Sequence record: PQ384582.1
Reading direction: 5' to 3' (one strand)
Origin: Escherichia phage EcoPhCCP1
DNA length: 44,482 nucleotides
The notes beneath the pieces were generated by a model. That model ran no database searches and was not told where the DNA came from. It saw only the letters and a list, made by a program, of their open reading frames with translations. The translations under genes and the position numbers were made by a program. Of the stretch, positions 2,655 to 39,216 are shown piece by piece (position 1 is the stretch's first letter; each line of letters starts with the position of its first letter).

Positions 2655-2683
2655 AATATAATAGGGTCGATGGTAATAGTCAA
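2655..2683 (-). promoter_or_regulatory. sigma70-like promoter TTGACT-N17-TATATT (minus strand)
   Basis: -35 at 2683-2678 and -10 at 2660-2655 on the minus strand, immediately after terminator 2705-2737. Confidence 0.45.
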
Positions 2684-6829: not shown

Positions 6830-6858
6830 ATAGTATCCTATTATGTTGGGGTGTGCAA
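6830..6858 (-). promoter_or_regulatory. phage promoter family member TTGCAC-N17-TACTAT (minus strand)
   Basis: Reverse complement of 6826-6858 matches the 32-bp promoter at 29301 and 39188 with 2 mismatches. Confidence 0.55.
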
Positions 6859-6904
6859 GAGATTAGTTACGTTGCCGTTGTGATTCTTTCGTGTAATAGG
6901 ATAG

Positions 6905-6940
6905 CGAGCGAAACGAAACGAACGTGGTGCCGAAGGCACC
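6905..6940 (-). terminator. terminator-like hairpin (minus strand) ending repeat element copy 1
   Basis: GGUGC-C(UUCG)G-GCACC hairpin on the minus-strand RNA, followed by ACGUUCGUUUCGUUUCG. Confidence 0.35.
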
Positions 6941-7010
6941 AAGAGTGAGTGAGTGAGCTTGCGGTTCTGACCTACGGCAAATCAGTAACTTATATACTTA
7001 GGCGGGAATT

Positions 7011-7156
7011 ACAATAGACTATGGCCCTTCCGAATGCGCCAGCGAGACTCACTCCACACGTCGAGACGTGCTCGTTTCGCCTGCCGCGCACCGCGGTCGC
7101 TTGTTCATACTTCACAAGCTCAGGTCGAGCTTAGCATATTTCTTAGTAAAAGTCAA
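7011..7156. repeat. non-coding repeat element, copy 1 (paralog of 38980-39121)
   Basis: Direct alignment: about 80% identity overall with a 45-bp near-identical core (CGCGGTCGCTTGTTCATACTTCACAAGCTCAGGT.GAGCTTAGCA). Confidence 0.85.
7128..7156 (-). promoter_or_regulatory. promoter-like module in repeat copy 1: TTGACT-N17(TGn)-TAAGCT (minus strand)
   Basis: -35 TTGACT (7156-7151), 17-nt spacer, extended -10 TGcTAAGCT (to 7128); conserved in copy 2. Confidence 0.4.
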
Positions 7157-7261: not shown

Positions 7262-7432
7262 ATGACTATCAATGAAGTAGCTGAACGTATTGGGGTGACG
7301 CGCCAGACAATTAATAACTGGATTAAGAGTGGAAAGTTTCCTGATTGCAGCGTTAAAGTAATGGGTCGCCGGATGCCGGGGACATTTGACCGTAATAAAG
7401 TTGAAGCGTGGATTAAGGAGAACGTGAAATGA
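7262..7432 (+). CDS. HTH DNA-binding protein (AlpA/Xis/MerR-like)
   Basis: Internal ATG 7262 with GGAG SD; MTINEVAERIGVTRQTINNWIKSGKFP is a typical HTH. Confidence 0.6.
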   Translation: MTINEVAERIGVTRQTINNWIKSGKFPDCSVKVMGRRMPGTFDRNKVEAWIKENVK

Positions 7433-10096: not shown

Positions 10097-10121
10097 GTAA
10101 AAAGAAAGGGGCGTTAAGCCC
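10097..10121 (-). terminator. rho-independent terminator (minus strand) at the end of the XRE gene
   Basis: GGGGC-GTTAA-GCCCC hairpin (10107-10121) followed on minus strand by TTTCTTTTTT. Confidence 0.5.
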
Positions 10122-10329
10122 CTTCACCGAACGCCAGCCACTTGGCGTCTACTTCCAGCACTTCTGCCAGTTTAAACAGCGTCGCCGGGCGGACATCCTG
10201 AGTTACACCGAGTGCCAGTTGGTTAATCGCGCCCTGGGAAACCCCAGCCAGAACAGCCAGACGGCGCTGGGAGATGCCGAGTTCTTTACGGCGTTGTTCT
10301 ACACGGATGCCTAGTTCAGATGGTTGCAT
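10114..10329 (-). CDS. XRE-family HTH transcriptional regulator (Cro/CI-like)
   Basis: LGISQRRLAVLAGVSQGAINQL is a classic XRE HTH; gene is antiparallel to the flanking replication genes. Confidence 0.75.
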   Translation of the reverse strand: MQPSELGIRVEQRRKELGISQRRLAVLAGVSQGAINQLALGVTQDVRPATLFKLAEVLEVDAKWLAFGEGA

Positions 10330-10393
10330 GTCAATTACTCCTTAGTCAGTTGATATGTGAATAGTACCATATTAATTATTTTAGGAAAGCCCA

Positions 10394-10423
10394 TTGACAT
10401 CATGAATAGTTAGCTATTATAGT
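10394..10423 (+). promoter_or_regulatory. sigma70-like promoter TTGACA-N18-TATAGT with AATAG-N4-CTATT dyad in the spacer
   Basis: Spacer TGAATAGTTAGCTATTATAGTT is identical to 13465-13486; back-to-back with the XRE promoter region. Confidence 0.55.
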
Positions 10424-10455
10424 TAGCACATACCAAACGAGAGGAGAGAAACAAA

Positions 10456-13228: not shown

Positions 13229-13461
13229 TTCGTAAAATGTTCAGAGTAATTGGCGGTTTTGTGGCGTTTTTAAGCTATCACTTTATGATGTTGCCGGTTT
13301 ATTCTTTGCTTTTTCCATTAATGGCTTATATTGCGGTTAAGTATAAAACTGTAGACCTGGAAGACTTAATGGAAGTTAATGAGATAAAGTTTGTTCAGAA
13401 TTTGGAGTGGCCTTTCGAATACGTACTGATAGTTGAGAAAATAACTGGCTGGAAGGGTTGA
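13225..13461 (+). CDS. small membrane protein
   Basis: Internal ATG 13225 with GGAGGA SD and ATGA overlap; two hydrophobic segments. Confidence 0.4.
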   Translation: MIRKMFRVIGGFVAFLSYHFMMLPVYSLLFPLMAYIAVKYKTVDLEDLMEVNEIKFVQNLEWPFEYVLIVEKITGWKG

Positions 13462-13486
13462 CACCTGAATAGTTAGCTATTATAGT
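13458..13486 (+). promoter_or_regulatory. sigma70-like promoter TTGACA-N17-TATAGT with AATAG-N4-CTATT dyad
   Basis: Consensus -35 at 13458-13463 and -10 at 13481-13486; spacer shared with the 10394 promoter. Confidence 0.6.
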
Positions 13487-13545
13487 TCTAATCACTGGCC
13501 GGGCAGCTTCCCGGAGTAAACGAAACTTAAAAGCGAGAAATCACG

Positions 13546-16980: not shown

Positions 16981-17261
16981 CTAAAGAGGGCCGCGTACAG
17001 AAATACGCAAAAGAGCGATTCGAGGCCATTGGCGGCCTCGTTCGTAAACTGTCTTATGAGGGGCGTTCCGGCGCCCCTGACCTGCTGGTAATTCTCCCCG
17101 GGGGCATCGTCTGGTTCGTCGAGGTGAAGAAAGACGAAAACACGAAGCCAGACCCGCACCAGTTACGGGAACACGGGCGGATGCGTAAACGCGGTGCAAA
17201 TGTTTTTGTCGTTGGTTCGTTTAAACAGGTTGACGACCTAATAGCGAACTATTATAGTTAA
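16962..17261 (+). CDS. VRR-NUC domain nuclease
   Basis: PDLLVILPGG...VWFVEVKK matches the VRR-NUC (PD-(D/E)XK) pattern; non-ATG start (TTG 16962 or GTG 16977). Confidence 0.6.
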   Translation: MDSAVVTKEGRVQKYAKERFEAIGGLVRKLSYEGRSGAPDLLVILPGGIVWFVEVKKDENTKPDPHQLREHGRMRKRGANVFVVGSFKQVDDLIANYYS

Positions 17262-22168: not shown

Positions 22169-24715
22169 TTAATTAAAACCATTGCTGAATCCGTCGGAGA
22201 AACCGCGGCCTAAAGGTGCGACGCCGTCGTATTTATAGAATCCGTCGTCATAGTTGTAGCCAGTAATCTTGACCGTGCGGTCATCGCCCGGGTCTATTGA
22301 AGAAACAACTATCTTCTGAGCATTATGCCTTGCTTCGTTGCCGAATGAAAACTCAGTTTTTAGCGCGCTATTCCCCGTGTAGATTGCCTCCTCCGGCGCG
22401 GAGAGCATAACCACTTCGCGGTCATGACTTCCTTTGATAACGGAGATACTCTGTACGGAGCCGTCGCGCTTCTTAAGAATGATGGAGTGGTCGTCTCCGG
22501 GGGTAAACGTAACAGGCTGGGACAATGTCAGTGTAAGCCCATTAACGGCAACAACATAACCATCTTGCGGCGCAATGCGAGAGCCTTTAACAACGCTGAT
22601 TACCCCGCCGGGGGTGGCGAGCGCACCTTCTTCCGTAGCTTCAAACTCTACGACAACTTTACTTAACGTGTTGCGCTGGTAGCGGCGCCACGCCAGCCAG
22701 TACGCCTGCTGGTAGTTGCGCACCCCCTTCGATTCGTACTCCTCGGTGTTTGCGCCGAGTTCTTCCGGGATATAAATCGTTTCCTGTACGTTAGTATCAG
22801 GGTCAATGTACGAGAACGACAGGCTATCGTAGGTTGTCGAATCGTTGAACGTGCGGGTCCATTTCTCCGTACCAGTTGTCTTACTGCGGTGGGTGAATAC
22901 CATTTCAGGCCCCGCGACAGGACGGTCGAATCGCAGCATAATATCCGCGCCTTTACGGTACGCAGTACAGAACACGGCTTCCGCTATGGTCTGAACGATG
23001 TCCTGCATCGTGGTGTCGTAGTCGTCGAACGTGTAGCAGAACTGCCCCGCTAATTCACTTCCGAAATAGGACTCGATTTCTTCCTGCACGGATAGTAACT
23101 TATCCATGTTTGCCGTTGTCAGTTCCAGATTACCCACCGCTGGGTCGCGCGCCAGCCTGATTAGCGACTGCACGGCCTGAGTGTTTGGTGTCATTACCGT
23201 ATCGAATACCCCATTGCCTAAGTATTTGTAGCACATCTCGGTCGCGATCATGCGCAGTTCAGGGTTATCGATACTGGCAGCGCGCGGCGTCTGTTTACGG
23301 GCACAATGTACGGTAGTTCGGTTGCCGTAGTGTGGGGTTGTGTCCAGTGACTGCCCGTACAGGTTGATGAAGGTTATCTCGTCACTTACCGTCCCGTCGT
23401 AGTCCTTGTCGAAATTCGTTACGCGGCGCATGCGGGCACGGAAACGAGACGCTGTCGGCAATTGGCCATAGATAGACGTACCGACGTAATCCGTATTGTT
23501 GCCTGTAATTGTAGCCTGTACCGTGTAAATATCGCCCAACGGGTTACGCTGAGAGTCAATCATCTGATACTGGAGTTCTACGGTTACGCTGGTACGGTTA
23601 TAGCCGCCGTCGTATTTGTAGAGGCCGTTCTGCCCGGCAACGTTAGCAAGTACCCGGTCAACTTCTCCGCGTACCATGTAATACCAGTCCGTAAGAGATA
23701 CGTCATAGGTGTTGCTCGGGCCGATAAACGTATCTGAACGCTCTGTTAGCGTGTACGTCTGTCCGCTGGTCAACGCGGCCCAGTTAGACGCACCGTTTAC
23801 GGCTAATCTTACTTCGAAGTCGTCAACGTATAAAACCTCAAACGAGCCGTTCAGGTTAGTGACATCAGCAACGTCAAAGTTGCTCAGCACCGCCACATCA
23901 CCGACGCTAAGAAACTCAGAAAAAGCAGAGTCTCCTGACGGGTCATAGATGTAGCCGGTGTTTGAAATACGTTTAGCGGTGCCGTCGGCGCTTGGGTTGG
24001 CCCCGATGTCGTTCGGCGCTTTCAGTACAATACCGTCAACGTCGTCGTTGGAGTACGTCACATAGAGTTTCTGGTCAATGACGTCGCCGATTTGTAGTTG
24101 CGGGGTAGTTGTATTGTTTGGTGATGTATAGGGGGCGTACACGGCAACAGAAGAACCTGTGATGTCGCTTATCAGGGTGTCGCCTTCCGTGACGCCATCA
24201 GCCTCAATATGCAGATGCCCGCGACCAGCGTCATAGTACGAATACTCCAGCAAAGCACCAGTGGAGTTGAACGCCTTGTACGTCTGCATAAGGTCGTTAG
24301 GGATTGTCTGCACAGTCCCGCATATGTCATAAGAGCGCTCGTAAGGACGCGGCTTGTTGGAGCGGTCTGTTAGGCTGTTATTAGCGGATTTTGCTTGGTT
24401 ATTTGTCGCTGTTACCGCCAGACTCGGTTTCTTAGTTAGTAAAACCGTAGCCGCAACGACGACCAAAGCAACAAGCGCACCTACTACAAGCGCACCTCCA
24501 CCAGCTCCTTCTACTATGTGATACACCGCGTCTTCGTCTTTAAGCGCGTCGAAGTCGTCAGTGATATCGGTGTCGTCACCAATCTCACCGAGATATACGC
24601 GCACAGGAACGCCGTCAGGGATATGGTTGACAACAAACTCCATTGGCATCCCGACGTGTTTTGTACGGTCGAAAACACCGTTAGCATTTCGCGTGTAGTG
24701 CAGGATTATCGCCAA
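22169..24715 (-). CDS. tail tip / host-specificity protein (gpJ-like central fibre)
   Basis: 848 aa directly downstream of the tape measure and minor tail genes; N-terminal ~100 aa has a Gly-rich hydrophobic segment and may be a fused upstream ORF. Confidence 0.55.
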   Translation of the reverse strand: MAIILHYTRNANGVFDRTKHVGMPMEFVVNHIPDGVPVRVYLGEIGDDTDITDDFDALKDEDAVYHIVEGAGGGALVVGALVALVVVAATVLLTKKPSLAVTATNNQAKSANNSLTDRSNKPRPYERSYDICGTVQTIPNDLMQTYKAFNSTGALLEYSYYDAGRGHLHIEADGVTEGDTLISDITGSSVAVYAPYTSPNNTTTPQLQIGDVIDQKLYVTYSNDDVDGIVLKAPNDIGANPSADGTAKRISNTGYIYDPSGDSAFSEFLSVGDVAVLSNFDVADVTNLNGSFEVLYVDDFEVRLAVNGASNWAALTSGQTYTLTERSDTFIGPSNTYDVSLTDWYYMVRGEVDRVLANVAGQNGLYKYDGGYNRTSVTVELQYQMIDSQRNPLGDIYTVQATITGNNTDYVGTSIYGQLPTASRFRARMRRVTNFDKDYDGTVSDEITFINLYGQSLDTTPHYGNRTTVHCARKQTPRAASIDNPELRMIATEMCYKYLGNGVFDTVMTPNTQAVQSLIRLARDPAVGNLELTTANMDKLLSVQEEIESYFGSELAGQFCYTFDDYDTTMQDIVQTIAEAVFCTAYRKGADIMLRFDRPVAGPEMVFTHRSKTTGTEKWTRTFNDSTTYDSLSFSYIDPDTNVQETIYIPEELGANTEEYESKGVRNYQQAYWLAWRRYQRNTLSKVVVEFEATEEGALATPGGVISVVKGSRIAPQDGYVVAVNGLTLTLSQPVTFTPGDDHSIILKKRDGSVQSISVIKGSHDREVVMLSAPEEAIYTGNSALKTEFSFGNEARHNAQKIVVSSIDPGDDRTVKITGYNYDDGFYKYDGVAPLGRGFSDGFSNGFN

Positions 24716-25071
24716 AATTCAATCTCCGTGTACAAGTCTCTTAGGTCAACAAGCCTGTCAAGCCGTACCTGACGGGAGGCCATTTCGCAATGACTAACCA
24801 TTCCGTCAAAGTAGACCCCGGCGTGCCACACGATTCTGCCGCCGCGGCGCCTACCCATAAGAACCGCGCACAAGTTTTCAGGCTTATCAATTTTCGTAAG
24901 CCCCTTCGTGTCACGATGGCCTTCATCAAACGCTTCGTTAATTGCCGTTGGGCTTGTAGCGTCGAACGCCGGGGTTGCTAACCCGGCATCCGCACGGACA
25001 ATACGCACATGATGCCAGCAATTGCGTTTGCGAAAGTCGTAAGGTATTCCCGTGTAGTCGTTAATGTTCAT
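24706..25071 (-). CDS. tail assembly protein, NlpC/P60-like (gpK-like)
   Basis: GIPYDFRKRNCWHHV...H pattern resembles NlpC/P60 Cys-His; position in tail tip cluster. Confidence 0.45.
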   Translation of the reverse strand: MNINDYTGIPYDFRKRNCWHHVRIVRADAGLATPAFDATSPTAINEAFDEGHRDTKGLTKIDKPENLCAVLMGRRRGGRIVWHAGVYFDGMVSHCEMASRQVRLDRLVDLRDLYTEIEFWR

Positions 25072-25598
25072 GTGATTAACAGACCGCGTAATAACGGTAT
25101 CTCTTTAGGTGTCATAAGTATACCAGTGCTTCGTTGGTTCAGCATAGGCGTCCCTAAATTAGCAGAGAACCGCCCCTTGTCCTGAGCTATGGTCTGCACC
25201 TCATATACCACGGGGCCATCTGCCGGGTATGACAGGTCGGTGCTGACATAACGGCGAAATATGAACTTCGGCAACTCAGTGCTATCCATCGGAATATTAT
25301 CCAGCTCATCGTCCAGTAAATTTCCGACGTCAGGAAGGGTAAACGTCGTCGTCTGGTCCATGTCGTTATTGTTAGCGGCCCCCGACGCCTCCATCGGGGT
25401 TGGTTCGAACGTGATTGTTTCGCCTGTCTCCAGCGTTGCCGTAAGTTCCTGCAGTCCGCGCACAAGATAGTACGTCTTTGACAGCAACGGGTGGCTGACT
25501 TGCAACGTGATGTAGTCCATCTCGCCGTCGGGATTTGAGGCCAGCTTACGGCGATAGGCGGCTTCTACTGATTCCTGGCTCATTGCATCGGGTCCCAA
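25068..25598 (-). CDS. minor tail protein (gpL-like by position)
   Basis: Position between tape measure and tip genes; no motif recognised. Confidence 0.4.
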   Translation of the reverse strand: MGPDAMSQESVEAAYRRKLASNPDGEMDYITLQVSHPLLSKTYYLVRGLQELTATLETGETITFEPTPMEASGAANNNDMDQTTTFTLPDVGNLLDDELDNIPMDSTELPKFIFRRYVSTDLSYPADGPVVYEVQTIAQDKGRFSANLGTPMLNQRSTGILMTPKEIPLLRGLLIT

Positions 25599-26080
25599 AT
25601 TCGTGGAAACGTTGATTGCGCGGTTCCGTAGGCTTTAAGGAAACATCCCAGCCCATCACCATAGCAACCATACAAGTCCGGCAGATTGTTAACAAGGCAC
25701 TGGTTCTCAAGGTTCTGGAACGGCGATTTCTCTGCGGTTGCCGTGAAAGTAATAGTCCAGTTGACCCCGTCTTCGGTGGACTCGGCGATGGTTGACGTGA
25801 TTGTTACCTGATAATCCTCAATACCCATTCCGAAGTCATGCGCCATCCAGAAACTTGACGCACCGCCATCGACTTTCTCGAGGAACGACAGAAACGCCTG
25901 CCGCCCTAGTGCTGAGGTAATCAGGGTTACGCTTATTGGGAACACGTCGTAATACGTGTCGCGACCCTGACGCACCCCGCCACCGGCTAAATCAACGCTC
26001 CAGACGTTGTTACGTCTGGTCATTGAGTAGCCTTTTGACACCACCGGCTTAAGGCTACGTGGAAAAAATAAGTCAGTCAT
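25580..26080 (-). CDS. minor tail protein (gpM-like by position)
   Basis: Immediately downstream of the tape measure gene. Confidence 0.4.
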   Translation of the reverse strand: MTDLFFPRSLKPVVSKGYSMTRRNNVWSVDLAGGGVRQGRDTYYDVFPISVTLITSALGRQAFLSFLEKVDGGASSFWMAHDFGMGIEDYQVTITSTIAESTEDGVNWTITFTATAEKSPFQNLENQCLVNNLPDLYGCYGDGLGCFLKAYGTAQSTFPRIWDPMQ

Positions 26081-28419
26081 TATTTGAACCCCGGCGCATT
26101 TCTTGTGGCCTTTCGGGCCTTGCTAATCTTACTGTTGCTGTTCTGCAAAGAGGCAGCCACTTGCTCTTCGATGATGATACGCAAACGGCCTTCATCATCT
26201 TGTTCAGTGGATACGTTGCCAATCTGACTCGATGTGTTATTTACGATGGTAACATTAGATGTGCCAGAAGAAGACCCGTTTTGCCCCATAATTTCTTTCA
26301 TCTGCTGCGCGGTACGAACACGCGATGCCCCAGCGGGCATGATAACTTCGGGTTTACCACGTTCCGCGATGGTGGAAGCCTGCCCTGCGGATAACTGACC
26401 ACCCTGTTCACGCGCAGACCTGATAGCGGAAACCTGCGCCATACCTGCCCCAACGGCAGCAGCAGCAGCTACCGGTGCAAGGAACGGTCCGACAACCGGG
26501 ATAGCAGCAGTTGACTTATATGCCTCAATAGCTGCGGTGTACGTAGCGATAGTGGCTTGTACGATAGCGAACGCTTTATAAGCGCCAGATGCTTCACCTA
26601 ACGCGGACCCAATGTTGGATGCCATATTGCCAAAAGCTGTTGCCGTTGCGTCAGCACGCTTGGTTGCGTACTGTTCGTTGATGGCGTTAAGCGCAGCCTG
26701 GTATTGTTCTTCATTAATAAGACCCTGTTCCCGGTACTTATCCGCTACCGCCAGTTTCTGCTGTTCCTGAATATCCAGAAGCTCAAGCTCGGTGGCATTC
26801 TGGCCCATAATCTGAGCCATGAAATCGTCACCTTTCTGTTGCTTTTCCTGGGCCTCCTTCCTTTTCTTGTCCAGTTCTTCCTGGCGGGCCTGCTCAGCGG
26901 ATAACATAATCTGCGTCTTGGCGTTTTCGTATTGCTGGTCGCTAAGAAGCTTATTGCTATAGAAATCCTGCAACTTAGACAGTTGCTCTTCCTGGTTAGC
27001 TTCTATTTTCTGGAATACGTCATCATTAAGATGGATTGACTGATAGTAGAAGTCTTCCGCCGCTTTTTTCTGGCGCTCGAACGCGTCCGCTGCTTTCTTA
27101 GCGGCTTTTGCGGAGGACCCGTCATCGTCAGAACCGCCACCAGTTCCGGTTACCTTAAATTTGTTTAACCCCTCAGCTTTTGCGGATTCCTTATCGATGT
27201 CATATGCCGCGCGTTTTAACGCTACAATATCCTGTTGAGCTTCTACCTGTTCGCGGAAACTTTTACGCGTAACGTCGGCGACATCGCGCTGGGTATCCAA
27301 AGCCAAGCCAAGCTGGAAGTTGATATTTTTAGCTACGTCTACTGATTCCCCGGGGGTGAAAGCGGCTCGTACAAGACGGCCCGCGTCCTGCGCACCTTTA
27401 ACCATATCTTCAAAGAATCTCTCCATCGCGGTGAACTCTTCCGCGATGAAGTCAAGCGCATCGGCAGCGGATTCCGCGATGGTGGTAGCTGTTTGTCCTC
27501 CGCTATCGGTAATACTCTTGCTGCTGAAATCCCACAGTTCATTAAGCCCGTTGATGGCGTCGCCGACAAAGCCAAACGCAGCGTCGAATGACATCTCGAT
27601 AGCGCTTCCTACTTCCGACGCGATGTCGCCCCACATCTGCATTTCAGCGGCTAATTCACCGGAAGCAACAGACGCGTTTAATTCCTGAATCAAGTCATCG
27701 ATATACCTGATAGGTTCAGCAAGTGCGCCAACATCAAGACTGGTGGCAAGCGTCATTTTTAGCTGCGACCATGAGTCACTGGCACTCGCGATAGCGCCAT
27801 TAAGGGTGTTGGCTTGGTCCGCCATAGCCCCCGCAAAATTTACGTTACCAATATTGAGTAAATACTGCTCGATATCGGCAGCGCTTTTCTTAACTACCGT
27901 TGTCGTTCCCTGGAACGTAAACTCTACGTCGTTTTTGTTCTGCTTGGCTTTGATGCCGAATTCTTTGAGGCGTTCGAACTCGAACGTACTGGCGTCGGCT
28001 ACCGCCTCAATCATCTGATTAAGGTCCTTACCCATAGCCGATGCGGTATTGCCGTAGGACCGCAACGCCTCCTCGGATGGGGTAAGGCCCAGAGCCACCA
28101 GCTTACGGAAGCCTTCCACCGCCTGCTCAAGCCCGTATGGGGTGTCGCGCGCAAAATCTTGCAGGATACTAAGCGCCTGTTTAGCGCCCTGGGTACTTCC
28201 GGTTAAGGTCTTCAAACTAGCGGACATCTTGTCCAGTTGCCGCTGTGAGTCAACCAGTTCTTGCGCGGCTTTATATGCGGTAGCCGCTACGATAGAAGCA
28301 AGGCCTGCTACAGCGGCCCCCGCTACTTTTGCGGACTTTGAAAGGTTGTCAAGACGGTCTGACGTGGCTTTCGCGCCTTGCTCTGATACTTTTACGACTA
28401 AACTAGCTACATCAGCCAT
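26080..28419 (-). CDS. tail tape measure protein
   Basis: 779 aa, Ala/Gln/Glu-rich helical protein downstream of the chaperone pair. Confidence 0.8.
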   Translation of the reverse strand: MADVASLVVKVSEQGAKATSDRLDNLSKSAKVAGAAVAGLASIVAATAYKAAQELVDSQRQLDKMSASLKTLTGSTQGAKQALSILQDFARDTPYGLEQAVEGFRKLVALGLTPSEEALRSYGNTASAMGKDLNQMIEAVADASTFEFERLKEFGIKAKQNKNDVEFTFQGTTTVVKKSAADIEQYLLNIGNVNFAGAMADQANTLNGAIASASDSWSQLKMTLATSLDVGALAEPIRYIDDLIQELNASVASGELAAEMQMWGDIASEVGSAIEMSFDAAFGFVGDAINGLNELWDFSSKSITDSGGQTATTIAESAADALDFIAEEFTAMERFFEDMVKGAQDAGRLVRAAFTPGESVDVAKNINFQLGLALDTQRDVADVTRKSFREQVEAQQDIVALKRAAYDIDKESAKAEGLNKFKVTGTGGGSDDDGSSAKAAKKAADAFERQKKAAEDFYYQSIHLNDDVFQKIEANQEEQLSKLQDFYSNKLLSDQQYENAKTQIMLSAEQARQEELDKKRKEAQEKQQKGDDFMAQIMGQNATELELLDIQEQQKLAVADKYREQGLINEEQYQAALNAINEQYATKRADATATAFGNMASNIGSALGEASGAYKAFAIVQATIATYTAAIEAYKSTAAIPVVGPFLAPVAAAAAVGAGMAQVSAIRSAREQGGQLSAGQASTIAERGKPEVIMPAGASRVRTAQQMKEIMGQNGSSSGTSNVTIVNNTSSQIGNVSTEQDDEGRLRIIIEEQVAASLQNSNSKISKARKATRNAPGFK

Positions 28420-28771
28420 CGTTTCTACCCTCGAAAATAGCGTCTAAGCTCATGATGATGTCAGATTCAAACATGCCTATATTCTGGCCCGAAACGGTGC
28501 TGTACGCCACTAAATCCGACCATCGTAACTGTTCGCGCGGGTACATCTTGATGTCGTCGTCATCTACTCGGCGGGTAAATTTGATTTCCCGGTACTTCTC
28601 GAAGGTGGTTAATAGCTCAGGGGGACATTCCGGCCCGGTGTCCTGCGTTGCTTCCGGCGCGTCTTGCATAACCCCCATAGCAATTAGCGCGGCTTTATGC
28701 CCGTCGGCGATACTGTCAAATTCCCGCCGTTTGTGGCGGGTTATGAAGTTCCAACGAGCGAACTGGAGCAA
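28412..28771 (-). CDS. tail assembly chaperone, frameshift-extension part (gpT-like)
   Basis: Open in the -1 frame relative to 28777..29193 across a 32-nt overlap window (28777-28810). Confidence 0.45.
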   Translation of the reverse strand: MLQFARWNFITRHKRREFDSIADGHKAALIAMGVMQDAPEATQDTGPECPPELLTTFEKYREIKFTRRVDDDDIKMYPREQLRWSDLVAYSTVSGQNIGMFESDIIMSLDAIFEGRNDG

Positions 28772-28776
28772 CGCGT

Positions 28777-29193
28777 CTACTTTTCCTGTAACTGGCGCAG
28801 TTGTTCGTTATGAAACACAACAACAAGTTCCGCGAGTCGTTTATATTGCGTCAGGAGTGTGTTCAGATTCTCTTTATTGAATTCGTCGTCCAGGCTCCAC
28901 CCGTTAACCAATTCAATTGCTAACTGTCGGTTAAGGTCCGTGGCCGCATCTTCCATCTTCAGGTTGTATTCAGAGAAATCTTTCATCTCTTCGCACTTAT
29001 CACGAAGCGGTTTTAATTTCCCTAACACTGCCCGGTATGCAAGGGTGAACGCGCGCATAGCCTTAACGGCAACGTCTGCCTCAGGAGAAACAACATTAAG
29101 CCATTCCCCAGAATCGGTACCGTCTTTTAACGGTATCGGCATACGCGCACCCTTTTCGGCTTCAGCTTCGTAATAAAAATCAGAAAGTTTCAT
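28777..29193 (-). CDS. tail assembly chaperone (gpG-like)
   Basis: Acidic 138-aa protein directly upstream of the tape measure gene. Confidence 0.55.
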   Translation of the reverse strand: MKLSDFYYEAEAEKGARMPIPLKDGTDSGEWLNVVSPEADVAVKAMRAFTLAYRAVLGKLKPLRDKCEEMKDFSEYNLKMEDAATDLNRQLAIELVNGWSLDDEFNKENLNTLLTQYKRLAELVVVFHNEQLRQLQEK

Positions 29194-29300
29194 TCTTTAA
29201 TCCTTTGGTTAAGAGGTTACTGGTTAAAGGAAATGCGCCAGACGGGAACCACCCGCTTTTCGTGTGCGACACTAGGCGCAAAATTATTCTAACACACTAC

Positions 29301-29329
29301 TTGCACACCCCAATATAATAGGGTACTAT
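29301..29329 (+). promoter_or_regulatory. phage promoter family member TTGCAC-N17-TACTAT (plus strand) driving the moron island
   Basis: 32 bp (29301-29332) identical to 39188-39219. Confidence 0.6.
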
Positions 29330-29360
29330 TCACTTACACCAACAATGGAGGGGTTTTAAG

Positions 29361-29552
29361 ATGTCCAGTTTACCAATTTCCTTAATTCTGTTCGCACTGC
29401 TTGCTTATTTCGCACCTTTCCTGGTTGCGTACTTCCGTAATCATAAAGCGAAGTTAGCGATATTCATGGCTAACTTATTTCTTGGGTGGGTTCTGTTGCC
29501 GTGGGTATTCATTTTAATCTGGGCTTGTAACTCGAACGTGAAAGAGAAGTGA
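29361..29552 (+). CDS. small two-TM membrane protein, superinfection-immunity-like
   Basis: YFAPFLVAYFRNH...NLFLGWVLLPWVFILIWA resembles the Imm_superinfect pattern; GGAGGGG SD. Confidence 0.5.
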   Translation: MSSLPISLILFALLAYFAPFLVAYFRNHKAKLAIFMANLFLGWVLLPWVFILIWACNSNVKEK

Positions 29553-29590
29553 GCTACTATAGGACAAATCCTAAACACGAGGAAGTAAGC

Positions 29591-30721
29591 ATGGCCCGGA
29601 AGAAAATAACCGACGAACAGTTACAGGAAGAATTGAACGCCGGGGTTAAAACTATCGATATAGCCCGTAAATATGGCATCTCAGACCGCGTTATTCGTAT
29701 CCGTAAAGCGAAGCTGGCGAAGAAAGGCGTGGGTCATGGGCGTGACGTTAGCCACCTTGTGCCGGACGGCTACAAGATTAAAGGAACATCGTCACTTGTG
29801 GACGAGTTCGGCAACACTAAGTTGCAATGGGTTAAGACCGATACCGATGCCGAACGTCAGGTCGAATTGATGAAAGCCGTAATCGAGGGCATGAAGTCAG
29901 AGATTACTCCAGTTGCGCCTGTTAAAGCCGCCCGCACCAAACGCGACGACAAGCTGCTCAATCTTTACACGGTATCTGATTTCCATCTCGGTATGCTGGC
30001 CTGGGCTGACGAGAGCGGCGACGACTGGGATATGAAGATTGCGGAAGACCTGTTTTCTCGCTGGTTCGATGCGGCGTTTCAGAAAGCACCAGATGCGGGA
30101 ACCGGGGTTATTAACCTGCTGGGTGACTTTGCTCACTTCGATAGCCTGGACGCCGTTACACCTGAGTCGCGCCATGTGTTGGACGCCGATACTCGCTATC
30201 AGAAACTGGTTCGCTACATGATTCGTATGGTGCGCCGTGTTGTTGATATGGCGCTTGTTAAACATAAAACCGTTCGCTTGCTTATCGTGCAAGGGAACCA
30301 CGACGAAAGCGGAATGATTTGGTTGGCTGAGATGTTCAGTACGCTGTACGACAACGAGCCGCGTGTGTTCGTCGATACGTCGCCGGATGTGTACAAGATG
30401 GTGCGACACGGCAAAACGACGCTGTTCTTCACACATGGTCATAAATGCCGGTTTGAGGTGGTCGAACCAATTATGATATCTAAGTTCAGAAAAGCATTCG
30501 GGGAAAGCGAGTACAGCTACGCTCACGTAGGCCACCTGCATCACCAGAAAATTGTAGAAAGCCGTAACATGATTGTTGAGCAACACCGCACCTTAGCGGC
30601 TAAAGATGCCTACGCCTCTCGTGGCGGATGGATGTCAGGACGCAGTGCAAATGTAATTACTTATAGCGCCGAATACGGCGAGGTCGCACGTTTAACTATT
30701 TCACCGGAGATGCTGGGATGA
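29591..30721 (+). CDS. calcineurin-like metallophosphoesterase with N-terminal HTH
   Basis: Motifs SDFHLG, LLGDFAHFD, VQGNHDE, THGH, VGHLHH; ATG 29591 with GGAAG SD (track ORF starts at GTG 29549). Confidence 0.6.
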   Translation: MARKKITDEQLQEELNAGVKTIDIARKYGISDRVIRIRKAKLAKKGVGHGRDVSHLVPDGYKIKGTSSLVDEFGNTKLQWVKTDTDAERQVELMKAVIEGMKSEITPVAPVKAARTKRDDKLLNLYTVSDFHLGMLAWADESGDDWDMKIAEDLFSRWFDAAFQKAPDAGTGVINLLGDFAHFDSLDAVTPESRHVLDADTRYQKLVRYMIRMVRRVVDMALVKHKTVRLLIVQGNHDESGMIWLAEMFSTLYDNEPRVFVDTSPDVYKMVRHGKTTLFFTHGHKCRFEVVEPIMISKFRKAFGESEYSYAHVGHLHHQKIVESRNMIVEQHRTLAAKDAYASRGGWMSGRSANVITYSAEYGEVARLTISPEMLG

Positions 30722-31203
30722 AAGATATTGTAATTTTCGATTTAGATGGAACATTGGCAGATGGTATGCATCGTTTACACCTGCTGCCGAAAGATAACTA
30801 CAACGAAACATGGGCGTGGAAACCCTTTAACATGGCGTGCAAAGATGATGAACCAATTAGAGATAACATCGAACTGTGTAACGCCCTTAATCGTCGCTAC
30901 GCCGTTATTATTTTAACTGGTCGCAGTGATGATGCAGAAAAAGAAACCAGAATGTGGTTGCAGCGCCACCGCGTCGAATTTTATCAGTTAATCATGCGCA
31001 GCAAACACGACAACAGAAAAGACATCGTAATTAAAGAAGAGGTGTTACGCGCTATCGGGCTGGAAAGAATATTGTGCGCATTCGACGACTCTCCGGCGGT
31101 AATAAAGCATTTCCGCGGACTCGGTATAACCACTCACGCGGTTACTGAATACGACTGTAACGGGAATTCTACACACTTAAAATCACACGGGAGCGATAAA
31201 TAA
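30718..31203 (+). CDS. HAD-superfamily phosphatase / 5'-nucleotidase-like
   Basis: HAD motif I FDLDGTLAD at the N-terminus. Confidence 0.6.
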   Translation: MKDIVIFDLDGTLADGMHRLHLLPKDNYNETWAWKPFNMACKDDEPIRDNIELCNALNRRYAVIILTGRSDDAEKETRMWLQRHRVEFYQLIMRSKHDNRKDIVIKEEVLRAIGLERILCAFDDSPAVIKHFRGLGITTHAVTEYDCNGNSTHLKSHGSDK

Positions 31204-31772
31204 TGGCTAAGGTAATTATTCTTAATGGCCCGGCGGGTTGTGGGAAAGACACACTTGCTATGGTGCTGGTAGAAATGGGCTTTGCGAAGGGTGCTACCAG
31301 TTTCAAAAATCCAATGTTCAATATTGCTCTGGCAGCGTTAGGTCCGGATGCGTACCACGAGTTTCTCGACGGCTACGACGACCGGGCGCGGAAAGAAAAG
31401 CCAGAGGGTTTCCTTAATGGTTTGTCTCGTCGTCAGTTCATGATTGCCATTTCTGAGCAATTCATTAAACCGGTTCTCGGCGGCGATTATTTCGGTAAGT
31501 ATCTTGCTGAAAACTTGCCCGACGGCGATGACGTTTTTGTAGTGTCAGACGGTGGATTCGCCAGTGAAGTGTCCCCTATCGTCGCCGCAGGGCATGACGT
31601 AAAAATCGTTCGCTTGCGCAGAGACGGCTATACGTTTGACGGGGATAGTCGTGGTTACCTGTACGGTATTGATGGTGCGGTATGTCATGACGTTGTGGCC
31701 ATCCCAGGCGAGATTACATTAACAGCAGCTGCGATTGCTAATAGAATCCTGGGGATTTATCCAAATGCGTGA
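31203..31772 (+). CDS. P-loop kinase, dNMP-kinase-like
   Basis: Walker A NGPAGCGKDT (GKDT variant as in T4 gp1-type dNMP kinases). Confidence 0.55.
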   Translation: MAKVIILNGPAGCGKDTLAMVLVEMGFAKGATSFKNPMFNIALAALGPDAYHEFLDGYDDRARKEKPEGFLNGLSRRQFMIAISEQFIKPVLGGDYFGKYLAENLPDGDDVFVVSDGGFASEVSPIVAAGHDVKIVRLRRDGYTFDGDSRGYLYGIDGAVCHDVVAIPGEITLTAAAIANRILGIYPNA

Positions 31773-31941
31773 ATGTACAATGGGGACAATATTTGTAATC
31801 CGCGTATATGACGAAGAATGGGATGAGTGGGTTGATATTTATGCTGTTGGTAGTAAGGAAGAGGCCGCAAAAGAGATGACAGAACGGAGTGACAGAGGTC
31901 AGTTAACTAACTTCTACGAAATGCCATTCAAAAGTGAGTGA
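31765..31941 (+). CDS. hypothetical protein
   Basis: ATG 31765 in frame with track ORF 31735..31941; ends at the terminator. Confidence 0.35.
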   Translation: MRECTMGTIFVIRVYDEEWDEWVDIYAVGSKEEAAKEMTERSDRGQLTNFYEMPFKSE

Positions 31942-31946
31942 GTGAG

Positions 31947-31976
31947 AAAAAGGCCCCGAAAGGGGCCTTAGTTTTA
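31947..31976. terminator. bidirectional rho-independent terminator
   Basis: AAAAAGGCCCC-GAAA-GGGGCCTT flanked by A-run and T-run. Confidence 0.75.
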
Positions 31977-33146
31977 TGCGTAGGTGATACGCTGGATAAC
32001 AATAGACGACTGGTATTGATTGCCTGTGGACTGCCCTTCTATGCTCTGGGTAATTGATTCAGGTCCGCCAATCTCTGGCGTAACCGCCGTGAGTTCTGCG
32101 CGTTTCAGACTGAAAGACATAGCCCCGTTTACCCCCGCCAGAATAGAGTTAATCTCTACCTGCTGTTCGTTGATAAACTTCTGAATCATCGCCATGTCAT
32201 ACAGCTTACCGGAGATGGAGAAGGTGTTAGCCGCGCGGCTACGTTCCACAAACGCTACGTTAGTGTTGCCGAGTTCGAACTGTGCGGACGCGCTGTTATC
32301 GTTGGTGATGGTCAGGCTGTCGCAGCGCAACGGCGTAGAGCCATCGAACACAGAAACGTCAACCGAGGAGAACGGCTCATCAGTGAACGTAACAGAGGAG
32401 AAGTCGGAACCAGACGGCGCCGCGGTAAGAATCTCCTGGCTGCGCCCGATGAACGGGAAGCTGCCCGTCACCATCGCGTTAACGGTCTGTTCAACAGTGA
32501 AACCAGAAACTTCCACGCCTTTGGTAAGCGTGTACGCGTCTGTCCCGCCGCACTGGCCCTTGTACCAGGTGAGAATAGAGAACGTCTTACACTGGCTGCC
32601 GGTTTCCAGTTTGTCGCCGGTCTTAGCCGCGGTAGTAGCAGTCTCGGTGATCAGAGTGTGTTGAATACCCGCACCAGTTACCACCAGTGCCTCTACCGCA
32701 GTAACAATAAACGGTTTAGCGTTATCGCCGGTTAAGTCAGTAAACGCAATCAGGTCGCCTACTTCCACACCGTCAGTAATAAAGCTACCTCCGGCACGGG
32801 TGAACGTCTTGTCCACCGGTGCGACGGTAATCGACAGCCCCGACAGAGAAACACCGGATTGCCACGTAGAGCCTAAAGCACCCGCCAGCCAGTCGTCCTG
32901 GCTTTTAGAGCTAAGCTCGACCGCGTATTCACCGCTAACCTGTTTGTTACCGGTTCGGATGGATGTAGTTTCACGGCTGCCGTCCAGTTCGTTGGAGGTC
33001 AGCGTGTCGCGGGTGATAGCAGGAACGCCACCTGTGTTACGCAACGGTGACCAGACCGGGTTAGTCGGTGTTACGCCCGGGGTAGTTTCCGCCACATAGA
33101 ATTGCGCGGTAGTCGCGCCCTTAAAAGGAGTTGTAGCCATATTCAC
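31974..33146 (-). CDS. major tail protein (by position)
   Basis: 390-aa Thr/Ser-rich protein downstream of connector/terminator genes; no motif recognised. Confidence 0.5.
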   Translation of the reverse strand: MNMATTPFKGATTAQFYVAETTPGVTPTNPVWSPLRNTGGVPAITRDTLTSNELDGSRETTSIRTGNKQVSGEYAVELSSKSQDDWLAGALGSTWQSGVSLSGLSITVAPVDKTFTRAGGSFITDGVEVGDLIAFTDLTGDNAKPFIVTAVEALVVTGAGIQHTLITETATTAAKTGDKLETGSQCKTFSILTWYKGQCGGTDAYTLTKGVEVSGFTVEQTVNAMVTGSFPFIGRSQEILTAAPSGSDFSSVTFTDEPFSSVDVSVFDGSTPLRCDSLTITNDNSASAQFELGNTNVAFVERSRAANTFSISGKLYDMAMIQKFINEQQVEINSILAGVNGAMSFSLKRAELTAVTPEIGGPESITQSIEGQSTGNQYQSSIVIQRITYA

Positions 33147-33556
33147 AGCCTCTTGGTGAATGCAATAAAGTTAATTGACAATGGTCGTTTGGCCCATCCG
33201 TTTTCTACAATCAGCGGCCCCAGGCTAACCGATTGAACCTCGGCGCAGATGTCGTTACGTGAAAATGACTTGCCTGCTTTAAACGCCGTATTAAGTAAGT
33301 CTGCCATTTTATTGATTGGCGCGCTACCTTTCGCCGATGCGTAGTTAATGTCGACCTGATAGATACCAGAGCGTTGCTCGGTGAAGAACAAATCCGCCTG
33401 TTCCGTATCCGCCAGCAACATGTAACTCGCCAGATACGGCGTATCTGTTGACGTCGGCGCGTCGATGTTTTCAAACGCAACCTTGATGCCGTTTGCGTTC
33501 CCGAAGGCTACCAACGGCACATCAAACGCTTTGGTTAAGTCCTCAAAGTAGCCCAT
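33143..33556 (-). CDS. tail terminator/completion protein (by position)
   Basis: Gene order only. Confidence 0.4.
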   Translation of the reverse strand: MGYFEDLTKAFDVPLVAFGNANGIKVAFENIDAPTSTDTPYLASYMLLADTEQADLFFTEQRSGIYQVDINYASAKGSAPINKMADLLNTAFKAGKSFSRNDICAEVQSVSLGPLIVENGWAKRPLSINFIAFTKRL

Positions 33557-33951
33557 TATTTCACCTTGTTGGCTTCTTCATTAATGAGTTGCTGGAAGCG
33601 AGACACGTTAGTCCTGACCATCCCGGCGGGCGCTTGCTGCGACCAACCATACTCCAGTCGTTGTGCATACGGCAGATTATTTGTCAGCGTGAACTCGCGC
33701 CAGTCGGCGGCTTTCAATACGAAACCTGTAGCGTTTCCGATTGCTATGTTTCCTGATTTATCCGTAGCGTCCGTAATCCCGGAAGCAGGAGTACCGCCAG
33801 ATGCCATCCAGTTCATACGAAATCGGCCTGTATCTACCGGACTCGCCTTTATAATAGCGGAAAACAGCTTGATAGACACCTGACGCATCACCTTCTCTGG
33901 GTTCTTCTTCGCCTTTTCCACGAACTTAGAGACATCAAGCGCGAAACTCAT
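33556..33951 (-). CDS. HK97 gp10-like tail component
   Basis: PVDTGRFRMNW resembles the gp10 family motif (PxDTGxLRxS). Confidence 0.5.
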   Translation of the reverse strand: MSFALDVSKFVEKAKKNPEKVMRQVSIKLFSAIIKASPVDTGRFRMNWMASGGTPASGITDATDKSGNIAIGNATGFVLKAADWREFTLTNNLPYAQRLEYGWSQQAPAGMVRTNVSRFQQLINEEANKVK

Positions 33952-34388
33952 TTTCTCACCTGGATAAAGTATGCCACGACATCATCGTTAACCATCTTCT
34001 TCTCAATGGCTACGACAGACCATTGCTCGCCGCCGAATTGCACCTTGTCTTCCATCTTCGGTACAACACTGCAATCCGCTTTAACAATCATGTCGCCAGC
34101 CTGAATCGTCGTACCGTTTACCAGCCCCGCGTTTACCGGAACCGGAACCGCCTTCAACGGCAACACTTCATCCGCAGACCAGACGTACTCACCGAGAACT
34201 TCATCCCACACTTTCGAGCCAGCGCGAACAAGAGATACCGTGCTACCGAATTTGGTTAGCAGGCGTGTACCGACGCCTTGCATACGTTTACTGAAAGCGG
34301 TGCTCATTTTAGCACCTCTTGCAACGTCAAAAGAACACCGTAACTGTGCAAGACTACCGCGGTAAGAAAACCAAAAACTACACCACAT
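33948..34388 (-). CDS. head-tail joining protein (by position; start uncertain)
   Basis: Gene order; likely starts at internal Met (MSTAFSKRMQ). Confidence 0.35.
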   Translation of the reverse strand: MWCSFWFSYRGSLAQLRCSFDVARGAKMSTAFSKRMQGVGTRLLTKFGSTVSLVRAGSKVWDEVLGEYVWSADEVLPLKAVPVPVNAGLVNGTTIQAGDMIVKADCSVVPKMEDKVQFGGEQWSVVAIEKKMVNDDVVAYFIQVRK

Positions 34389-38373: not shown

Positions 38374-38637
38374 CTATTCCAGAATATTCCTCACGTAATC
38401 CTGCAACATGAACACTTTCAGCCTCAGCTGCCGTACGCATTCGGCGTTCTGGACGTCGATAGCTAAATCCTCGTCAGCGTCGCTACTTGGCGGCGCCAGT
38501 TTGCACGGAGGCTGCATCATTGTCGTATCCGGGGATGGAATTGGCGTTTGCGACGGCGCGGGACTTGAGCAGGACGCGAGCATCGTCGAAAGTGCACACG
38601 CTGCGGCCAGGCGTTTTAATGTACTTAACGACTTCAC
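38374..38637 (-). CDS. o-spanin (Rz1-like outer-membrane lipoprotein)
   Basis: Signal peptide with lipobox LASC, Pro-rich mature region; starts inside the i-spanin gene in another frame. Confidence 0.7.
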   Translation of the reverse strand: MKSLSTLKRLAAACALSTMLASCSSPAPSQTPIPSPDTTMMQPPCKLAPPSSDADEDLAIDVQNAECVRQLRLKVFMLQDYVRNILE

Positions 38638-38869
38638 GGGTAATCACCTCTGATTTCGTCTTGCCTTCGTTGTCGGCGGCTGCGGCCTTCGATTCATCTT
38701 GCTGCTGCCGTTGTGTTTTCTTCGCTAACTCAGCCTGTGCTTTCTGCTGTTGCTGCGAAACGAGATTCGCCCGGCCTTCGTTCCAGCCGCTGTGATACTG
38801 GTAGATGCCGTGTGCGTAAGCCAGGATGGTGAAACATGCTCCTGCTACGACAGTTGCTTTAAGATTCAT
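38483..38869 (-). CDS. i-spanin (Rz-like)
   Basis: N-terminal TM segment, Gln/Lys-rich coiled coil; AAGGAG SD; overlapped gene architecture with Rz1. Confidence 0.7.
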   Translation of the reverse strand: MNLKATVVAGACFTILAYAHGIYQYHSGWNEGRANLVSQQQQKAQAELAKKTQRQQQDESKAAAADNEGKTKSEVITREVVKYIKTPGRSVCTFDDARVLLKSRAVANANSIPGYDNDAASVQTGAAK

Positions 38870-38883: not shown

Positions 38884-38913
38884 GATAAGTAAAGCCCCGC
38901 CATAAAGCGGGGC
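38884..38913 (-). terminator. terminator/attenuator hairpin (minus strand) just upstream of the spanin RBS
   Basis: GCCCCGC-UUUAUG-GCGGGGC followed by UUUACUUAUC on the minus-strand RNA. Confidence 0.45.
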
Positions 38914-38979
38914 GCTAGTCCTTATCATTTAAACATAGAAACGGCGTAATCTCAGTAAACCAGTTACTTTTTACACAAG

Positions 38980-39121: not shown

Positions 39122-39134
39122 CTATTCGAATAGT
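39121..39134. promoter_or_regulatory. perfect 14-bp palindrome ACTATTCGAATAGT abutting the -35 of the repeat-copy-2 promoter
   Basis: Read directly; half-sites related to the AATAG/CTATT dyad found in other promoters. Confidence 0.6.
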
Positions 39135-39187: not shown

Positions 39188-39216
39188 TTGCACACCCCAA
39201 TATAATAGGGTACTAT
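39188..39216 (+). promoter_or_regulatory. phage promoter family member TTGCAC-N17-TACTAT (plus strand)
   Basis: 32 bp identical to 29301-29332. Confidence 0.6.

Follow-up and report, generated by a model that had tools for sequence, protein, structure and literature searches.

The window analyzed here is the whole 44,482-nucleotide stretch of DNA of Escherichia phage EcoPhCCP1 (sequence record PQ384582.1), which is an essentially complete Kagunavirus genome (Guernseyvirinae, K1G/Jersey-like siphoviruses). When a 1.2-kb query around the element described below was used for a search, matches were obtained in 178 phage records (Escherichia, Salmonella and Raoultella). The gene order was taken from the annotated maps of Bas72 and Ent1. 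On the minus strand the terminase, portal, head morphogenesis and Hoc-like genes extend from 44482 down to 39420, the spanin, scaffold, major capsid, connector and major tail genes from 38869 down to 31974, and the tail genes from 29193 down to 20165. The small early/accessory genes form a block that runs leftward from 6804, also on the minus strand, and the replication genes are read on the plus strand from 7262. The tail-chaperone operon is preceded by a minus-strand leader, the int-alpA RNA (Rfam RF02996), at 29218–29282. An arrangement of promoter, short RNA, terminator and promoter is found at 2806–2655.

Two copies of a repeated element, both read on the minus strand, are located at 7012–7156 (copy 1) and 38980–39121 (copy 2). 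A sequence-only reading of the window had placed two copies at these positions, and this was borne out by two results. The copies share an exact core of 31 nt (7095–7125 in copy 1, 39060–39090 in copy 2), for which 100 shuffles gave 0 matches, and a search of the window with the covariance model R1 returned exactly two copies, at 38980–39086(−) with 128.9 bits and at 7012–7121(−) with 98.7 bits. On either side of a divergent middle with indels, one of them of 2 nt as that reading had also described, are blocks of 70 and 38 nt with 87% identity. The −35 hexamer is the exact point from which the copies resemble each other, and the resemblance fades at approximately +150, indicating that the duplicated unit consists of the promoter and the RNA.

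The promoter of copy 1 (7128–7156, minus strand) was read from the sequence as TTGACT (7156–7151), a 17-nt spacer, TGc and TAAGCT (7133–7128). That of copy 2 (39093–39121, minus strand) has the same composition, with TTGACT at 39116–39121 and TAAGCT at 39093–39098 again separated by N17 and TGc, and the TTGACT-N17-TGnTAAGCT promoter proposed at the outset is present on both copies. Neither was flagged by a simple consensus promoter scanner, because TAAGCT matches TATAAT at three of six positions. Comparison with other phages supports the assignment, as homologues keep the promoter hexamers, the TG and the 17-nt spacing without change and differ in the letters of the spacer. Three lineages, with the hexamers TTGACT/TAAGCT, TAGACT/TACGCT and TGGACT/TAACCT, keep the pattern T-N-G-A-C-T, a spacer of exactly 17 nt and TG-N-T-A-N-N-C-T, and here too the spacer sequence drifts. 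On these comparative grounds the cassette promoter was accepted as a predicted sigma-70 type promoter with an extended −10. In copy 2 the −35 hexamer is abutted by a palindrome, CTATTCGAATAG (39122–39133), preceded by TTATTCC/GGAATAA repeats. The palindrome is near-invariant across the aligned late-type homologues, with one variant (CTATTTGAATAG), and more distant relatives have a related layout of repeats. The palindrome and repeats look like candidate sites for a DNA-binding regulator.

The RNAs of the two window copies are 107–110 nt long; each begins with a 5′ hairpin (P1), continues with a long irregular one (P2) and ends in a conserved tail, UUCGGAAGGGCC..CUAUUG. In copy 1 (RNA core 7012–7121, minus strand; predicted +1 at G7121 or A7120) P1 is located at 7119–7099, P2 at 7096–7030 and the tail, AAGGGCCAUAGUCUAUUG, at 7029–7012. 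In copy 2 (38980–39086, minus strand) the corresponding positions are 39084–39064, 39061–38998 and 38997–38980. In the K-type copies 2 nt separate P1 from the predicted 5′ end, and in copy 1 P1 is the hairpin GCUUGU-GAAGUAUGA-ACAAGC that had been recognized from the letters of the sequence. P2 of copy 1 is a hairpin of 67 nt; it is the main structure of the element, and the sequence-only reading had described it only as a variable middle. It forms a coaxial helix of approximately 23 bp with bulges and internal loops. At the base CCG-(bulged C)-GGNGC is paired to GCNUU-CGG, followed by a CAG/CUG or CGCG/CGCG segment, above which are a 5-bp segment, an internal loop and an apical hairpin. The apex varies in sequence yet stays paired. 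The consensus tail, of which GGAAGGGCC is a segment, is single-stranded and 18 nt long. This tail and the base of P2, with its bulged C and tandem G-U, are strictly conserved across genera.

A covariance-model search, as suggested in the sequence-only reading, was applied to loci fetched from related phages, and 37 distinct homologous sequences were aligned. In this alignment, which was fitted to model R1 so that the pairing figures are somewhat inflated, standard pairs occupied 95.9% of the pair cells (94.7% in a set of 24 sequences), and 16 of the 29 pairs showed changes on both sides, in 102 cells. Slid controls, in which the partners were shifted by 1–3 columns, gave at most 37.5% paired cells and at most five pairs with changes on both sides. 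The alignment contained 104 G-U cells, and the minus strand fitted the fold at 95.9% compared to 86.8% for the complement, in agreement with the strand originally proposed. Minimum free energy and centroid folds of the single window copies independently gave P1 and the long P2, and the plus-strand folds were weaker (−30.8 and −30.3 kcal/mol compared to −40.4 and −38.8 kcal/mol). A DNA cruciform or a plus-strand RNA is disfavored by the G-U asymmetry and by these weaker plus-strand folds. The single-sequence folding energy was unexceptional (z = −1.2 and −1.8); the evidence for structure is the covariation, without help from stability.

The first 42 IMG/VR loci were fetched by P1 sequence, and P1 is therefore invariant among them by construction. 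Anchors placed elsewhere in the RNA then recovered variants of P1, namely type E early-slot copies with a different P1 loop, GAGAUAUC, and the Jerseyvirus version, ACGCU-UUC-AGCGU. The Jerseyvirus RNA retains the P2 base and the tail (ACCGCGGUGCG ... CGCAUUCGGAAGGGCC ... UAUAUUG). Its P1 5′ arm begins 4 nt past the −10, where a start at the usual distance would cut P1 to 3 bp. Since P1 is possibly truncated in these phages, P2 and the tail are the securely universal parts of the RNA. A search of the whole window against Rfam 15 at gathering thresholds identified only the int-alpA RNA, elsewhere in the genome, and with E-values up to 10 both copies gave only noise, the best score being 15.7 bits against a threshold of 42. 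The int-alpA RNA resembles the element in being structured and in marking where transcription of a long minus-strand operon of the same genome begins, but its fold and sequence are unrelated.

The conservation of the element is non-coding, as the sequence-only reading had held. That reading had nevertheless proposed a short uORF with its Shine-Dalgarno sequence and AUG in the loop of P1. Open reading frames of 19 and 9 codons do exist in the two window copies, but they are not conserved: among homologues they are 9, 17, 19, 22 or 34–41 codons long in different frames, they diverge beyond residue 6–7, and the AUG is missing in 11 of the 37 distinct sequences (the type E early copies, one late copy, which has GUG, and all Jerseyvirus copies). 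A uORF or leader peptide was rejected on this basis. The loop was not upheld as a carrier of translation signals either, being 9, 8 or 3 nt long in the different types, with unrelated sequences. Coding on the plus strand was also rejected, as an ORF of 37 amino acids at 7021–7134 is shortened to 8 codons in copy 2. In many GenBank records the element is covered by an annotated hypothetical protein, such as Bas72_0007.

The K-type element was found in 180 phage records at 222 matched places, which implies that approximately 42 records contain two copies, and the Jerseyvirus-type element was found in 269 records, with one copy in each. Together the two types account for approximately 449 records, compared to approximately 461 records with a capsid protein at least 80% identical to that of the window. 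The position of the universal copy does not vary: it is bounded by the end of the Hoc-like gene region on one side and by the spanin gene on the other. Homology between the genera extends over the entire leader of approximately 200 nt and takes in the P2 base and tail as well as the GAUU(A)CGCCGU motif of the spacer, the GC hairpin and the ribosome-binding site. The K-type and Jerseyvirus-type RNAs are 62% identical, below the 72–83% of the neighboring genes, indicating that the fold and a short core are conserved and not the whole sequence. Copy 2 is the ancestral copy for the whole subfamily and the leader of the spanin-scaffold-capsid-connector-tail operon. The sequence-only reading had missed this standing of copy 2 at the head of the structural operon.

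Copy 1 is an accessory duplicate, promoter included, ahead of the early-left block. It is present in approximately one quarter of the Kagunavirus records and absent from all Jerseyvirus records, and its slot is always between the promoter of the divergent HTH-primase operon and the early-left TTGCAC-N17-TACTAT promoter. In the window the latter promoter is at 6830–6858 on the minus strand, outside the repeat; it belongs to a family of three copies, the others being at 29301 and 39188 (+), and is conserved in relatives with or without copy 1. The apices of P2 differ between the copies in every two-copy phage examined, and one type of apex can occupy either slot. In Bas72 the slot of copy 1 holds a different promoter-hairpin-terminator module.

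Searches of more distant sequences delimited the range of the element. Among 185,579 bacterial species genomes no copy was found except in one 738-bp phage fragment, a metagenome scan gave further copies only of the near-identical K-type, and the matches of a degenerate pattern scan were mostly chance hits in GC-rich contigs. In relatives with a scaffold protein 55–81% identical to that of the window R1 gave no match. These relatives have other 5′ leader modules, termed types M and N, both fused to a common 3′ leader part. Type M shares the rearranged blocks CAUUCGG, ACCGCG and GGAAGGGUC with the element; type N has other hairpins and shares only AUAGUCUAUU. A common fold for these leaders could not be derived. 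Taken together, the comparative data make it probable (approximately 0.85) that the element is a non-coding cassette composed of an extended −10 sigma-70 promoter and a structured RNA that begins at approximately +1, with copy 2 as the ancestral leader of the late operon and copy 1 as its duplicate.

Downstream of each RNA there is a spacer followed by a GC-rich hairpin. In copy 2 the spacer (38914–38979, minus strand) is A/U-rich and contains the conserved motif GAGAUUACGCCGU; it is near-invariant in the K-type phages, and its motif is common to the Jerseyvirus type. The spacer of copy 1 (6942–7011, minus strand) shows weak homology to it (AAGUnACUG..GAUUnGCCGU) and includes a (CUCA)n run at approximately 6943–6958, the repeat number of which differs between phages. 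A terminator scan identified the hairpin of copy 2, GCCCCGC-UUUAU-GGCGGGGC followed by UUUACUUAU, at 38885–38913 on the minus strand. Its stem of 8 bp (38913–38894) is located approximately 75 nt downstream of the RNA, and the hairpin lies 15 nt before the Shine-Dalgarno sequence of the spanin gene. It has the features of an intrinsic (Rho-independent) terminator, with a GC-rich hairpin and then the U-rich tract UUUACUUAU. The stem is kept by compensatory changes, as GCCCUGC/GCAGGGC and, in Jerseyvirus, as GCCCGAC/GUCGGGC, and the Jerseyvirus late terminator has a poor U tract. A d'Aubenton-Carafa-type discriminant with modern energy parameters, for which the threshold is approximate, gave +35 (copy 2) and +25 for the late hairpins of K-type and +18 and +4 for those of the Jerseyvirus type, and +22 for a terminator after the capsid gene. 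For the early copies it gave −16 (copy 1) and −6 (other early types). The copy 1 hairpin, UGGUGCCUUCGGCACCA followed by CGUUCGUUUCGUUUCG at 6925–6941 on the minus strand, had been proposed as a terminator with a U-rich tract. It was flagged by a liberal scan only, and with a discriminant of −16 the proposal did not hold beyond this: the hairpin is a weak terminator at best. The other early-type copies have a different hairpin, GGGGUGGGCUAACGCCCACCC, without a U tract.

The first gene served by copy 2 is an Rz-like spanin gene (38483–38869, minus strand), assigned from the ORFs and the Bas72 and Ent1 maps. It is followed on the same strand by the scaffold gene (38345–37587), the major capsid protein gene (37587–36538) and then the connector and tail genes, and the second strong terminator, after the capsid gene, is located at 36522–36501. 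The copy 2 RNA and its hairpin sit between the only recognizable promoter and the first gene. A consensus promoter scan of the minus strand over 39121–31974 found no promoter, although promoter types invisible to such a scan are possible. In some relatives the terminator of the upstream operon lies directly before the cassette. As the scan found no other promoter and two terminators are present, we infer that transcripts of the essential structural genes probably originate from the cassette or from a site farther upstream and traverse at least two terminators.

Tentatively, and at clearly less than even odds, the element may be a cis-acting leader RNA that governs terminator read-through, put- or nut-like in its working and not homologous to either. 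The nascent RNA would act in cis on the polymerase that had just made it, either alone, like HK022 put, or by providing the site at which a factor of the phage or the host is loaded, like lambda nut. This polymerase would then pass the terminator-like hairpin approximately 75 nt farther on and later ones such as that after the capsid gene, polymerases without the RNA signal would stop at the terminators, and the palindromes beside the −35 would set the timing of promoter firing. This reading is suggested by the retention of the structure while the sequence diverges and no ORF is conserved, by the location of the RNA, which in approximately 450 genomes occupies the same place, downstream of a strong promoter and before terminators, and by the duplicated unit, which starts at the −35 and again faces a co-directional operon. 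By analogy, two hairpins at the 5′ end and two copies recall the layout of HK022 put, and the conservation of the P2 base and tail (ACCGCGG...UUCGGAAGGGCC) across phages of E. coli and Salmonella would fit a host partner such as RNA polymerase.

Other observations weigh against control of read-through. Among them are the lack of similarity, in sequence or structure, to the HK022 put region and to any Rfam family, and the poor U tract of the Jerseyvirus terminator. Copy 1, which has a non-terminator hairpin, faces a block with its own promoter and is often absent, lends little support to a role in antitermination. The differently built leaders of types M and N in distant relatives would be unexpected if the target were the invariant host polymerase, and this modularity is more easily reconciled with specificity for a cognate factor, or with a generic structural role, than with a fixed contact to the host polymerase. 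A leaky terminator combined with a purely stabilizing leader would explain the same layout. A riboswitch-like antiterminator was rejected, as the alignment, folded up to the 3′ arm of the terminator, contained only a 4-bp GGGC/GCCC contact between the tail and a terminator arm. The most specific version of the read-through reading, that the RNA is an autonomous, protein-independent processive antiterminator which binds the RNA polymerase of E. coli or Salmonella while emerging from it and is a second put-like RNA unrelated by descent, appears improbable; if true, an autonomous antiterminator RNA would license expression of the structural genes across a whole subfamily of virulent phages.

Antitermination by HK022 put is protein-independent, involves contact with the zinc-binding domain of the beta′ subunit and is blocked by rpoC mutations in this domain. 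The putL and putR RNAs of approximately 70 nt contain two stem-loops beginning approximately 3 nt from the 5′ end behind strong promoters, and each genome contains two diverged copies in which the stems are kept by compensatory changes (PMC9378689). The element is similar in that a nascent RNA would follow a sigma-70 promoter and precede terminators (here by position only), and in that two-copy genomes contain two diverged copies with stems kept by compensatory changes, the first hairpin being predicted to start at approximately +3. The two hairpins of the element are supported by covariation, but in Jerseyvirus P1 would depend on where transcription starts. It differs in its length of 95–110 nt compared to approximately 70 nt, in having one short and one very long hairpin, and in heading the late structural operon of a virulent phage. 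When R1 was run with filters off on positions 24000–34000 of HK022, which from the gene order are expected to span the early regulatory region (put is unannotated in the record), the best score was 5.5 bits with E = 4. The element also shares with the lambda nut and rrn antitermination leaders the presence of two leader RNA signals per genome, with hairpins and a single-stranded block. Unlike in nut, the tail block (CUCUAUUG or GCUAUAUUG) matches the boxA core GCUCUUUA at only approximately 5 of 9 positions by eye, and boxB is far smaller than the hairpins of the element. A search of seven small early ORFs against Pfam, and of four of them also against PHROGs, identified no N-like arginine-rich protein.

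Three other functions were weighed against control of read-through. The sequence-only reading had described the layout as that of a leader or small RNA of approximately 200 nt upstream of a gene block, which agrees with the layout found here, and had read the element as a small RNA or attenuator, which is possible. In the case of a terminated small RNA, stand-alone or dual-use, most transcription would end at the downstream hairpin, and the abundant RNA of approximately 200 nt so released would act in trans on host or phage targets or proteins, with the late genes being expressed only from the fraction of transcripts that read through; comparable cases are the StxS small RNA of Stx phages and, in lambdoid phages, the PR′ transcript that ends at a terminator. 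This function is rather unlikely. At copy 2 the promoter and the terminator-like hairpin delimit such a unit, and copy 1, upstream of a separate promoter, is placed like an independent gene, but the hairpins of the early copies are poor terminators, so that a defined 3′ end is not predicted there, and the long U tail of Hfq type is missing. The different promoter-hairpin-terminator module in the Bas72 slot, the similar arrangement at 2806–2655 and the divergence of the P2 apices between the copies of every examined two-copy phage would suit small RNAs. A search of the window for complements of the conserved tail found none when up to 3 mismatches per 15 nt were allowed, however, and as the late operon has no other recognizable promoter the transcript would have to double as its leader. 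A second possible function is that of a leader that stabilizes or processes the mRNA, in which P1 would block 5′-end-dependent decay, P2 would be an RNase III-type site and the GC hairpin would provide a second protection. Sites of RNase III type are known in the early and late mRNAs of T7 and in the lambda N leader, and the element resembles the T7 R sites, the lambda N leader and the ompA 5′ hairpin in its long irregular leader hairpin and its hairpin at the 5′ end. The closeness of P1 to the predicted 5′ end of the K-type copies (2 nt) and the irregular helix of approximately 23 bp in P2, with an apex that is free in sequence but paired, are consistent with this function, and the 5′ modules of other lineages, built differently and equally structured, would fit a generic role. 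RNase III sites and 5′ stabilizers nevertheless have no known need for a conserved tail or a sequence-specific helix base, and a stabilizing leader leaves the strict conservation of the P2 base and tail across genera unexplained. Nor does it account for the duplication of the unit, together with its promoter, at a site upstream of a second promoter, and the P1 of Jerseyvirus, with its 5′ arm 4 nt after the −10, may be truncated. The chance that stabilization or processing is the function was judged to be low.

A loading platform for an antiterminator of the Q or AlpA type would rely on DNA signals, namely a site at the promoter and a −10-like pause element, with the RNA fold being secondary. 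The lambda PR′-6S RNA-tR′ module, on which Q acts, and the AlpA/PalpB system are similar to the late cassette in their succession of a strong promoter, a leader of approximately 200 nt, an intrinsic terminator, and lysis genes (here those of the spanins) and then structural genes. The layout of copy 2, with its constitutive-looking promoter, matches that of the lambdoid late promoters and of PalpB of Pseudomonas aeruginosa (PMC9371919). A second −10-like hexamer is located 9–11 bp farther on (TAAGCT..TGAGCT in K-type, TACGCT..TACGCT in Jerseyvirus) and operator-like palindromes flank the −35. The second hexamer of K-type does not have the essential A at position 2, however, and type M has no second hexamer; a pause element of this kind does not appear to be conserved. 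In contrast to Q-type systems the leader RNA is itself under structural selection, and the 16 covarying pairs would be left unexplained. No Q or AlpA homologue was recognized among the proteins examined, and none is annotated in the Bas72 or Ent1 maps. The match to int-alpA and the neighboring HTH gene had provided a lead to AlpA, which was rejected: the adjacent protein is an HTH_17/excisionase-type domain of 56 amino acids and far too small, and it gave no significant match in the PDB (best E-value 0.17, to an unrelated protein; no AlpA). AlpA of P. aeruginosa has eight helices that extend past residue 142 and a Q21-like fold (PMC9371919). Loading of a Q- or AlpA-type factor is considered very doubtful.

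The Guernseyvirinae, among them Kagunavirus and Jerseyvirus, are some of the phages most often isolated for therapy and biocontrol of E. coli and Salmonella, and a literature search yielded no paper dealing with their transcription or non-coding RNA. Throughout the subfamily the RNA is a landmark that marks where the structural operon begins; its structure and ubiquity are solid and previously unreported, and it is absent from Rfam. If the RNA controls read-through, this would explain how the late genes are expressed without an RNA polymerase of the phage's own or a recognizable Q or N protein, and would add a second natural case in which an RNA controls the processivity of the polymerase. If it only stabilizes or processes the mRNA, the cassette would still be a compact promoter-plus-leader part of possible use in the engineering of these phages.

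The element, a minus-strand cassette consisting of a sigma-70-type promoter and a structured leader RNA, is covered by a gene annotated as 'hypothetical protein' in many GenBank genomes, for example Bas72_0007 (L043 5282–5392) in the annotated relative Bas72. The ORF behind this annotation encodes 36 amino acids and is not conserved; it is probably a false gene call. Two sequence repeats were also observed in the window. The spacer of copy 1 contains a (CUCA)n microsatellite at approximately 6943–6958 (-), with three to six units depending on the phage, and a perfect 77-bp tandem duplication (111–187 and 188–264) lies within the minus-strand ORF 113–658. This duplication could be genuine, or could be an artefact introduced either in assembly or by the joining of the window's two ends.

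Inspection of the sequence identified a further minus-strand unit at 2706–2806, consisting of a TTGACA-17-GATACT promoter, a short RNA and a strong terminator (CCCGGC..GCCGGG followed by nine U) approximately 65 nt past the promoter. The short RNA, a candidate small RNA, is C-rich and includes AUCACCUCCU, which exactly matches the anti-Shine-Dalgarno sequence at the 16S rRNA 3' end. A second promoter, TTGACT-17-TATATT at 2655–2683 (-), serves the gene at 2620–2432, probably the holin gene judging from its place on the Bas72 map.

Analysis of repeat families gave two promoter families, one with sites at 10393–10424, 13456–13487 and 17228–17259 on the plus strand, the other with sites at 29301–29332 and 39188–39219 on the plus strand and at 6830–6858 on the minus strand. 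One promoter family has the form TTGACA..AATAGTTAGCTATTATAGTT and the other TTGCACACCCCAATATAATAGGGTACTATTCA; both carry the inverted repeat AATAG-N4-CTATT, either overlapping the -10 or next to it. This repeat is probably the operator of one of the phage's HTH proteins, either the Cro-like protein (10114–10329, minus strand) or the HTH_17 protein (7262–7432, plus strand).

The Rfam int-alpA RNA (RF02996) was matched at 29218–29282 (-), scoring 36.6 bits (threshold 35.8). The start of the match coincides with the transcription start predicted for a TGtTAGAAT promoter, and the RNA is the leader of an operon that starts at 29193 and is, judging by position in the Bas72 map, that of the tail assembly chaperone. 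Another long minus-strand operon is therefore also headed by a structured RNA, one unrelated to the element.

The motif (AAUGACUU)ACGGCAAC recurs in the leaders preceding the spanin-scaffold-capsid operon of distant relatives, both in the differently built types M and N (L265–L280) and in the more distant L281 and L282. It often supplies the 5' arm of a hairpin that GUUGCCG closes. Within the window ACGGCAAC is also present at approximately 6868–6884 (-), shortly before the TTGCAC early promoter.

In Bas72 a different module takes up the copy 1 slot (L043 37250–37520); it consists of a TGTATAAT promoter and two hairpins, one strong and the other terminator-like. The promoter segment of this module, approximately 35 nt in length (CTTGACACATnTTTGTATAATG), was found again at the head of the type N late leaders of more distant relatives (L266, L271 and L280). 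Promoter-leader modules therefore seem to move between the copy 1 slot and the late-leader slot.
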